Part shown: one piece after another, positions 2,065 to 2,599 of the stretch | Position numbering within the stretch: the stretch's first letter is position 1 | How the letters are laid out: each line of letters opens with the position of its first letter | Origin: a virus | Taxonomy: Duplodnaviria > Heunggongvirae > Uroviricota > Caudoviricetes | DNA length: 9,449 nt | IMG/VR virus record: IMGVR_UViG_2718218100_000013 | Reading direction: 5' to 3' (one strand) | Position numbers and translations under genes: made by a program | The notes under the pieces: generated by a model | The model's database searches: none | What the model saw: the letters and a program-made list of their open reading frames with translations, nothing else | What the model was told of the DNA's origin: nothing

Positions 2065-2553
2065 TCAGTGTTTTAAGTCTGTTGGTGGCTTAGGGATGGG
2101 GAACCGATTTGAGTAGACACTAGCGGCATTGAGTTTTTTAACCTCTTTTTTCCCAATGCTGCCGATCTTGCGGTGGGTGAACTGGGCCAGCTTAAACGCG
2201 GCATCTAAAGCCAGTTTTGGATCTGTGTCCATGTTGTCAATCAGTATCCTGCCCATTGCTTTGATGGGGTCGGGTAGGCCGTTATCCATCATCTCAATGG
2301 TGTTAATTGATGCCCGTTCCGGTGTAACTTTTTCGGTAACTTTCTTTGTAACTTTTTTCGGTTTTGTAACCTGAAAAGTTACATCAGAAGTTACAGCCTT
2401 AAGATACTTTTTCACCTCAGGATCGTTGGATAGCTGCCAGCCTTTAACCCTTGCGGTCTTTTCGCTGTATCCCGCATGTATAGCGGCTTCCGTGGGATTT
2501 GCGCCCCTTGATAACGCATCAGCAAACCGCTTTTTTTTGGTCGTTAATGCCAT
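2065..2553 (-). CDS. terS: Phage terminase small subunit (Terminase_2-like N-terminal HTH)
   Basis: N-terminal segment FADALSRGANPTEAAIHAGYSEKTARVKGWQLSNDPEVKKYL matches the conserved A-AI-AGYSEKTA motif of small terminase subunits as I recall it. GAGG ribosome-binding site 8 nt upstream of the ATG. Confidence 0.8.
   Translation of the reverse strand: MALTTKKKRFADALSRGANPTEAAIHAGYSEKTARVKGWQLSNDPEVKKYLKAVTSDVTFQVTKPKKVTKKVTEKVTPERASINTIEMMDNGLPDPIKAMGRILIDNMDTDPKLALDAAFKLAQFTHRKIGSIGKKEVKKLNAASVYSNRFPIPKPPTDLKH
2324..2394. repeat. Cluster of GTAAC(T/C) repeats inside terS coding sequence: four direct copies at about 12-bp spacing plus two inverted copies
   Basis: Plus strand copies at 2324, 2336, 2348 and 2365, with inverted AAGTTAC at 2377 and 2388. 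They encode the KVT/KKVT peptide repeats of TerS. Confidence 0.6.
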
Positions 2554-2575
2554 GCAAAAACCTCGTTTTGAGGGG

Positions 2576-2599
2576 GTGTAACTTTTCGTGTAACTTTTT
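2576..2599. promoter_or_regulatory. Two tandem GTGTAACTTTT repeats in non-coding DNA just upstream of the terS start
   Basis: Same GTAACTTTT motif as inside the gene, here outside the annotated coding sequence and in a different frame relative to the terS reading frame. Confidence 0.45.

Follow-up and report, generated by a model that had tools for sequence, protein, structure and literature searches.

A repeated DNA word in and upstream of terS as a candidate cosB-like packaging array of a phage satellite of Escherichia coli O157:H7

The 9,449-nucleotide stretch analyzed here (IMG/VR record IMGVR_UViG_2718218100_000013; the whole stretch is hereafter called the window) is a satellite of the phage-inducible chromosomal island (PICI) type from Escherichia coli O157:H7, located between clpS and cspD according to the RefSeq annotation. 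The element under study is an array of short repeats that is shared between the coding region and the non-coding leader of terS, the gene for the small terminase subunit. This gene lies on the minus strand (2065..2553) and encodes a protein of 162 amino acids (aa), TerS, that is assigned to Pfam Terminase_2 (PF03592; 1.4e-10) and to PHROG 641 (1.5e-43). Most likely, the array of AAGTTACA repeats is a packaging address by which the satellite terminase loads satellite DNA into capsids borrowed from phages of the Shiga toxin (Stx) type.

The repeat array, its gene and the adjoining cos homologue

The word AAGTTACA is present in six exact copies in the 9.4-kb window, all within the 274 bp of 2323-2596, compared with 0.29 copies expected from 200 dinucleotide shuffles, among which the maximum was two copies and six copies were reached in 0/200. 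Two further, weaker copies lie within the same stretch, so that eight copies in total are found in or near terS. The 8-mer GTAACTTT is represented by six exact copies, at 2324, 2336, 2348, 2375 (minus strand), 2578 and 2590 (span 2324-2597), and by a copy with one mismatch at 2387-2394 (minus strand); no exact copy of it was detected in the window outside 2324-2597. The original prediction, made from the sequence of the window, counted four direct and two inverted copies inside terS plus two copies in the leader, and the coding-strand layout matches this tally.

An A-tract precedes each of the repeat sites, and the spacing is 12 bp. Both leader sites read AAAAGTTACAC on the minus strand. Site 1, which is proximal to the putative cohesive-end site (cos), occupies 2588..2598 and is the same aligned 11-mer that occurs in all GTTACA-type lineages examined; site 2 (2576..2586), 12 bp from site 1, ends 23 nt before the ATG at 2553 and has a counterpart in a second type of E. 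coli satellite (L002), which also carries a second adjacent leader copy. Together, the two leader copies span ~23-47 nt 5' of the ATG. Inside the gene, two inverted sites, oriented on the plus strand and reading TGTAACTT on the coding strand, at 2388..2395 (GC-T GTA ACT T-CT, A-V-T-S) and 2376..2383 (GA-T GTA ACT T-TT, D-V-T-F), are followed by four direct sites on the minus strand, namely, GTTAC with weak flanks at 2366..2370 (CAG GTT ACA AAA, Q-V-T-K), AAAAGTTACA at 2347..2356 (K-K-V-T, K-V-T-K), GAAAGTTACC, with one mismatch, at 2335..2344 (K-K-V-T, K-V-T-E; this 12-bp unit is absent from the natural variants P0003 and P0004), and AAAAGTTACAC at 2322..2332 (E-K-V-T-P). In five E. coli copies compared within the species, the array is identical, and substitutions are too few for a test.

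The TerS protein consists of an N-terminal helix-turn-helix DNA-binding domain (aa 1-56; AlphaFold2 predicted local distance difference test [pLDDT] scores of 81-89 over aa 1-50), a linker that is predicted to be disordered (aa 57-84; pLDDT <50, without secondary structure) and a helical core (aa 96-126); among solved domains, those of SF6 and Pam5 are nearest. Given that most of the VT repeats (aa 54-77) fall within the predicted disordered linker, the KVT peptide looks, in this model, like a passenger of the DNA word. The terS gene occurs in nature in variants of 154, 158 and 162 aa, which differ by one or two missing 12-bp units. Compared with the TerS of Stx phages, to which the satellite protein is 46% identical overall, the core is ~75% and the DNA-binding domain 61% identical whereas the linkers are unalignable.

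Next to the array, alignments identify a homologue of a cos cleavage region, GGACAC-CGCCCCCGT-CTCA (2623..2641, minus strand). The relative in which this site has been mapped (PMC7946995) is the Stx1 phage Lys8385Vzw, for which PhageTerm analysis of virion DNA indicated a cos phage with 3' cohesive ends CGCCCCCCCT; window positions 2635-2627 (CGCCCCCGT) align with this mapped 10-nt 3' overhang, and the GenBank record of the phage, MT225100, begins at the aligned CTCACGC. Five close relatives carry CGCCCCCCGT or one-base variants of it at the overhang position. Between the cleavage site and the first repeat, there is a conserved A-rich block, AGAAAATTTT (2608..2617, minus strand; AGAAAAAAT in relatives), and ~40 nt upstream of the cleavage site, a run of nine G (2671..2679, minus strand) that is conserved in all cos relatives. 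The length of the G-run ranges from 7 to 11 among E. coli copies, which could be real variation or a sequencing artefact, as could the number of C residues in the overhang.

The 130-bp leader as a whole aligns with the HNH-terS intergenic region of phages, in the order G7-9, ~40-nt spacer, (C)TGGACACCGCxCCCxCTCTCAC, A-rich block and first repeat. The cos block GGACACCGCxCCCxCTCTCAC...AGAAAAAAT and the G-run are conserved from the satellite to phages with the gene order HNH-terS-terL (terL encodes the large terminase subunit, TerL), and the same region, along with the 46% identical TerS, is found in Stx1a-, Stx2a- and Stx2c-converting phages, PPompW prophages, and phages BP-4795, 2851 and 1717, many of them from O157:H7.

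The repeats adjoin the cos homologue on the terS side, the arrangement of a cosB array. The first repeat lies ~30-40 bp (33-41 bp) and the six gene copies 230-310 bp inside the putative left end, and the array ends ~310 bp inside this end, as positioned by a cos that is mapped only in the relative. A scan of IMG/VR for the cos core yielded 120 loci encoding 68 unique TerS proteins, and in all these loci, the first repeat is located 43-51 nt from the overhang start. The leaders of relatives vary in length from 49 to 239 nt, the distance of the site being fixed to cos and not to the start codon; the register with cos holds even for the 49-nt leader, in which the site overlaps the start codon (xTG-TTA-ACx). 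In one metagenomic copy of the satellite (L298, 6380-6560), the ~45 nt that precede the putative cleavage site on the left are of the Stx-phage version (TATCATCCGGCGAAAAAAACGATCGCC), and the repeats and terS to the right of it match the satellite; this chimeric cos region suggests exchange between the satellite and an Stx-type phage at cos.

Conservation of the word at the DNA level and its relation to the TerS type

Relatives of TerS with 51-65% identity were located on contigs from E. coli, Hafnia, Salmonella and metagenomes. These include E. coli satellites of the second type (L002, L175), a Hafnia prophage with the gene order HNH-terS-terL-protease/capsid-portal (L004, L005), and Salmonella or metagenomic elements (L006, L171, L173, L174). 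All the GTTACA-type lineages examined share an unchanged AAAAGTTACAC at one aligned leader position, with the flanking leader sequence varying, and in every such relative, the word is also written inside terS, either as AAA-GTT-ACA or, inverted, as xxT-GTA-ACT.

The codons that encode the linker repeats are strongly constrained. All VT dipeptides of the linkers in eight terS genes use GTT or GTA (32/32). The codon after GTT is ACA or ACC, and the one before it is AAA in 15/19 cases. GTA is paired with ACT in 11 of 13 across the eight lineages; the codon before GTA-ACT ends in T in 11/11, over six different amino acids (Ala, Asp, Ser, Gly, Leu and Arg). Therefore, one word is spelled in both orientations by means of two codon pairs. 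Most lineage pairs share ~90-100% of their codons at the VT sites, and pairs with L002 share 50-75%; the figure for other conserved residues is 37-67%.

When the protein was held fixed and the codons were redrawn from the island's own usage, four 8-mers were observed versus 0.23 expected (P = 5e-5); the 7-mers are likewise enriched, and similar values were obtained in four of five other lineages. The 5-mer core GTTAC/GTAAC is not significantly enriched in the same recoding given the VT dipeptides (P = 0.10). Because the recoding yields P ~5e-5 for the extended word, we conclude that selection acts on the DNA. By recoding, codon pattern and leader invariance, the repeat elements are conserved as DNA independent of coding, as are those of a cosB array. 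It had been proposed from the window that the motif is conserved for the DNA rather than for the protein, and that homologues should be checked for repeats at synonymous positions. The comparison bears this out: the word is kept both at synonymous positions and in the non-coding leader among proteins with 51-65% identity. Homologues that retain the peptide and lose the DNA repeat would have spoken to the contrary, and the opposite is seen, the DNA word being retained and the peptide changing with it.

The word also differs between TerS types. All 68 unique TerS proteins of the IMG/VR cos-core loci belong to the GTTAAC type and not to the GTTACA type. The Stx type has five GTTAAC sites in a homologous leader of 239 nt and none in the gene, which encodes an unrelated linker without KVT. 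The type with a TerS of 153 aa carries GTTAAC in the leader, at the start codon or at both, and its linker VN is written GTT-AAC in all 13 members that carry VN. Several relatives encode a linker VN (GTT-AAC) where the satellite has VT; L015 combines such a VN (GTT-AAC) with two leader GTTAAC sites 12 bp apart. At position 39 of the DNA-binding domain, Ser is present in 68/68 GTTAAC-type proteins, and Trp, Cys or Tyr in the eight GTTACA-type proteins, a covariation with word type that is suggestive only. No GTTACA-type TerS was found among GenBank phages.

Two other groups of terS loci deserve mention. The second E. coli satellite type (L002, 5740-6003; gene order HNH-terS-capsid) carries six GTTACA sites in a long leader that is homologous position by position to the Stx leader, GTTACA replacing the phage GTTAAC, with one GTTAAC retained. 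In the group with a TerS of 165-170 aa (~25 unique genes, from IMG/VR loci such as L177, L183, L195 and L200), the linker contains a single conserved VN that is invariably written GTA-AAC between varying codons. Next to the GTTAAC at the start codon, GTAAAC (GTTTAC on the opposite strand) would represent a third conserved word.

Further searches added few lineages. A protein-pattern scan of genome contigs with the single TerS yielded no relative, and a profile scan found mostly distant terS genes, L091, L093 and L094 being the only useful ones. From the IMG/VR proteins, nothing but further copies of this island, L015 and distant matches was obtained. A metagenome scan for cos plus AAAAGTTACAC produced 93 loci, with TerS adjoining in 11 of the 93, all from the same E. 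coli lineage, and no new deep lineage.

Other genes and features of the satellite

The gene content is that of a PICI, namely, an island of ~10-15 kb with int, alpA, a primase-replicase gene and a packaging module, without lysis or tail genes (open reading frames [ORFs] and Pfam). The integrase is encoded at 8226-9449, AlpA at 7140-7364 and a D5-type primase at 3769-5517, and the island also encodes a DUF4222 protein. Matches to the terS region (window positions 1900-3100) at 90-100% identity were found in 219 of the 5426 complete E. coli genomes. Among the ORFs and Pfam matches of the window, there is no gene for TerL, HNH, portal or tail proteins, and the hallmark of HNH-dependent cos phages, HNH beside terS and terL, is absent from it. 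An HNH gene upstream of terS is present in the phage relatives L004, L009 and L010 and in the satellite L002; the satellite analyzed here would have to borrow HNH from a helper. Literature searches for induction or transfer of this island by a helper phage found no experiment.

Directly after terS, a 53-aa ORF (1892..2053, minus strand) matches PHROG 641 over positions 89-125 (E = 3.5e-7), that is, the TerS core only; pairwise BLASTP of this ORF against TerS gave no match. ORFs of 49-51 aa follow terS in L007, L171, L173 and L174. By its profile match, the 53-aa product looks like a TerS core without the DNA-binding domain. It possibly belongs to the packaging module and, like a Ppi, could be incorporated into TerS rings or poison them. 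The next gene (979..1902, minus strand) encodes a capsid-like protein of 307 aa (Pfam Phage_capsid, 1.3e-6; PHROG 617, positions 386-610 of 626) that matches only the C-terminal capsid part of the ~645-aa protease-capsid fusion of related phages and may be a Ccm-like remodeller of capsid size.

On the other side of the array, a 53-aa coiled-coil ORF (2683-2844, minus strand) stops shortly before the G-run. The C-terminal residues GLISLLGE are also found upstream of cos in L006 and L171. Some RefSeq genomes label the ORF "antitermination protein NusG", which looks like a mis-annotation. The non-coding segment beyond the capsid-like gene (271-1016) contains two 88-nt direct repeats (314-401 and 851-938, 95% identical) and an inverted pair of 27 nt, near-perfect and based on CGATATGGTGATCCCCATATCG (816-842 and 939-965); a remnant of a repeat element or an end of the island are possible explanations.

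Packaging recognition, alternative explanations and known systems

We think it reasonably probable that the array is a cosB-like set of recognition sites for the satellite's own TerS, written in a satellite-specific sequence. That TerS binds the repeats is inferred from sequence, the motif type tracking the type of the TerS DNA-binding domain. Because the relative Lys8385Vzw was mapped as a cos phage and the leader contains a cos homologue, the array looks like a cosB inside the left end rather than a pac site. Under the mechanism that we propose, the helix-turn-helix domains of a TerS oligomer would bind or wrap the two leader and six gene sites, the ~190 bp between them being looped or wrapped; the conserved TerS core would recruit the TerL and HNH of the helper, which would cut the shared cos core, and packaging of satellite DNA would proceed from the cut end. 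The distinct word would let the satellite TerS choose satellite over phage DNA: given that resident phages use GTTAAC and the satellite uses GTTACA, TerS would favour the latter. Some of the putative helper-type phages (Stx1a, Stx2c, PPompW and BP-4795 types) are found as prophages of O157:H7.

Several observations weigh against this interpretation. The DNA-binding domain of the SF6 TerS, which belongs to the same Pfam family and is the nearest that has been studied structurally, was reported to bind pac DNA without sequence specificity (PMC4737164); by analogy, direct readout of the bases of GTTACA is not guaranteed, and recognition could instead involve DNA shape. The intragenic copies of L002 are weak (8-mer P = 0.11), there are natural variants without one or two of the 12-bp units, and a low-coverage metagenomic contig (L370) has GTT instead of GTA at both inverted copies; because of these three cases, the intragenic part of the array is not strictly required. 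A single evolutionary split may underlie the association between motif and residue 39, which accordingly carries little statistical weight, and the group with TerS of 165-170 aa writes the linker VN as GTA-AAC, which is neither word. Finally, the overhang homologue in the window is 9 nt long, with one C fewer than in the five close relatives (10 nt).

The repeats might bind a packaging or late-gene protein other than TerS, such as HNH, TerL, a host architectural protein or a small satellite protein. The sites adjoin cos, where HNH and TerL must act too, small conserved ORFs flank the satellite cos, and the reported sequence independence of the SF6 domain is compatible with this possibility. 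However, the richest array is that of the window, which lacks HNH and TerL; the motif type follows the DNA-binding domain of TerS; and the Stx-type relatives use GTTAAC despite the conserved cos core at which TerL and HNH act, all of which makes such a partner unlikely. We rate slightly lower the chance that the array is regulatory, either an operator or translational control element of terS in the leader or a hairpin in the mRNA, with packaging recognition located elsewhere. The position of the leader copies 23-47 nt 5' of the ATG is suitable for such a role, the predicted mRNA fold pairs the inverted with the direct copies of the gene, and leader and gene are complementary over 25 nt at 84%. 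Yet there is no sigma-70-like promoter within 1900-3200, the RNA has no match in Rfam and a fold z-score of only -1.7, the leader is unpaired with the gene copies in the minimum-energy structure, and the site keeps its distance from cos rather than from the start codon; compensatory changes cannot be scored because the motif never varies. We accordingly set aside both the promoter or operator version, for lack of a sigma-70-like site, and the RNA version, a hairpin being an expected by-product of inverted DNA sites. The autoregulatory site suggested as one option in the original prediction is unsupported for the same lack of a nearby promoter and because, in phages, the site lies in the middle of the late operon, fixed to cos.

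Spread of a 12-bp KKVT unit by slippage, with no function of the DNA and with leader copies that are coincidental or derived from local duplication, would account for the spacing of 12 bp, that is, four codons, for the strain-dependent copy number (154, 158 or 162 aa) and for a 5-mer core that is unenriched given the protein sequence. It appears improbable nonetheless, given that the leader 11-mer is invariant in distant lineages, that synonymous and neighbouring-codon positions are enriched in the extended word, that inverted copies spell the same word with a different codon pair, and that VT gives way to VN in the otherwise hypervariable linker when the leader motif changes. The scenario to which we assign the least probability is a headful pac site inside terS, with cleavage in or near the array and without fixed ends. 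The Terminase_2 family of the satellite TerS also includes the proteins of the pac phages SPP1 and SF6; the pac region of SPP1 spans the terS start (PMC4737164), and the satellite, too, combines a PF03592 TerS with repeats on both sides of that start. But the closest phage relatives have HNH beside terS and an HK97-type TerL, one relative was mapped as a cos phage with 3' ends, and the window contains the homologous cos core. Hence, of the satellite pac that had been predicted from the window, the role in terminase recognition fits best and is retained, and the pac type gives way to a cos type on account of the leader cos homologue and the 3' cos of Lys8385Vzw. A role as a replication iteron was rejected, because the word does not occur near the primase gene and is found in phages whose replication modules differ.

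Returning to the cosB-like array, a broader proposition can be put forward, although we hold it only tentatively, as somewhat less probable than not. Under this scenario, HNH-dependent cos phages and satellites would share a recognition code that is partly written in terS, where the DNA word dictates the linker (GTTAC(A) giving VT, GTTAAC giving VN), and the O157:H7 satellite would have changed both the word and the TerS DNA-binding domain, using capsids, TerL and HNH of Stx1a- or Stx2c-type phages and excluding phage DNA. If this is true, the array is the specificity switch of a previously uncharacterised hijacking, and possibly interference, of Shiga-toxin phages by a satellite. In itself, the array supplies a testable candidate for the packaging recognition code (GTTACA versus GTTAAC, with one candidate specificity residue) of a large group of Shiga-toxin-converting phages (Stx1a, Stx2c, BP-4795, 2851 and 1717 types) and of the satellite. 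Should the satellite redirect packaging, the outcome could be a lower yield of Stx phage or co-movement with these phages, a matter relevant to how virulence genes spread in enterohaemorrhagic E. coli. More generally, the array would exemplify a protein-binding DNA site that imposes a peptide repeat on a tolerant linker, a warning against reading such repeats as features of the protein; synonymous recoding could separate the DNA function from the protein function unusually cleanly.

One of the closest known counterparts is cosB of phage lambda, which consists of the R3-I1-R2-R1 elements bound by gpNu1, with an IHF site between the R elements. The satellite array is similar in that short repeats in both orientations, located just inside cosN on the terS side, would choose the DNA to be packaged (background in PMC6739421). 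It differs from a lambda cosB proper in several respects: the TerS of lambda is the winged-helix Nu1 and that of the satellite belongs to Terminase_2, the satellite ends are probably 3' overhangs and HNH-dependent, and six of the eight satellite elements lie inside the terS coding region. The PICI EcCICFT073 keeps the cosN of the helper and has its own cosB (PMC6739421). The likeness to this Rpp-encoding island is that the same cosN combined with a different cosB directs a satellite-modified terminase to package satellite and not phage DNA (PMC6739421); the differences are that a complete TerS homologue is present here instead of the Rpp adaptor and that the putative helpers are HNH-dependent rather than lambda-like. 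As in the Staphylococcus aureus pathogenicity islands (SaPIs) with their TerS-S and pac, a satellite homologue of TerS with its own recognition sequence would work with the TerL of the helper (capsid-forming PICI [cf-PICI] preprint). SaPIs package by the headful mechanism whereas the satellite appears to be of the cos type, with a TerS-core-like 53-aa protein encoded after terS.

The pac of SPP1, whose TerS is G1P, is made up of pacL, pacC and pacR with box repeats, and pacR lies inside gene 1. Shared with the pac systems of SPP1 and SF6 are the Pfam family of TerS and a bipartite recognition region in which direct repeats flank the terS start (PMC4737164), so that the layout of the satellite array recalls pacL and pacR; in SPP1, cleavage occurs between the two parts of pac and packaging is headful, whereas in the satellite both parts lie on one side of the cos cut. 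HK97 has its TerS site 15-29 bp from the cos cut, inside the end (PMC11331095). The resemblance here is to an HNH-dependent cos phage whose TerS site, on the side that carries terS, is only a few tens of bp away from the point of cleavage; the HK97 TerS lacks a helix-turn-helix, threads DNA through its channel and uses a single 15-bp site, whereas the satellite combines a helix-turn-helix TerS with an array of eight copies.

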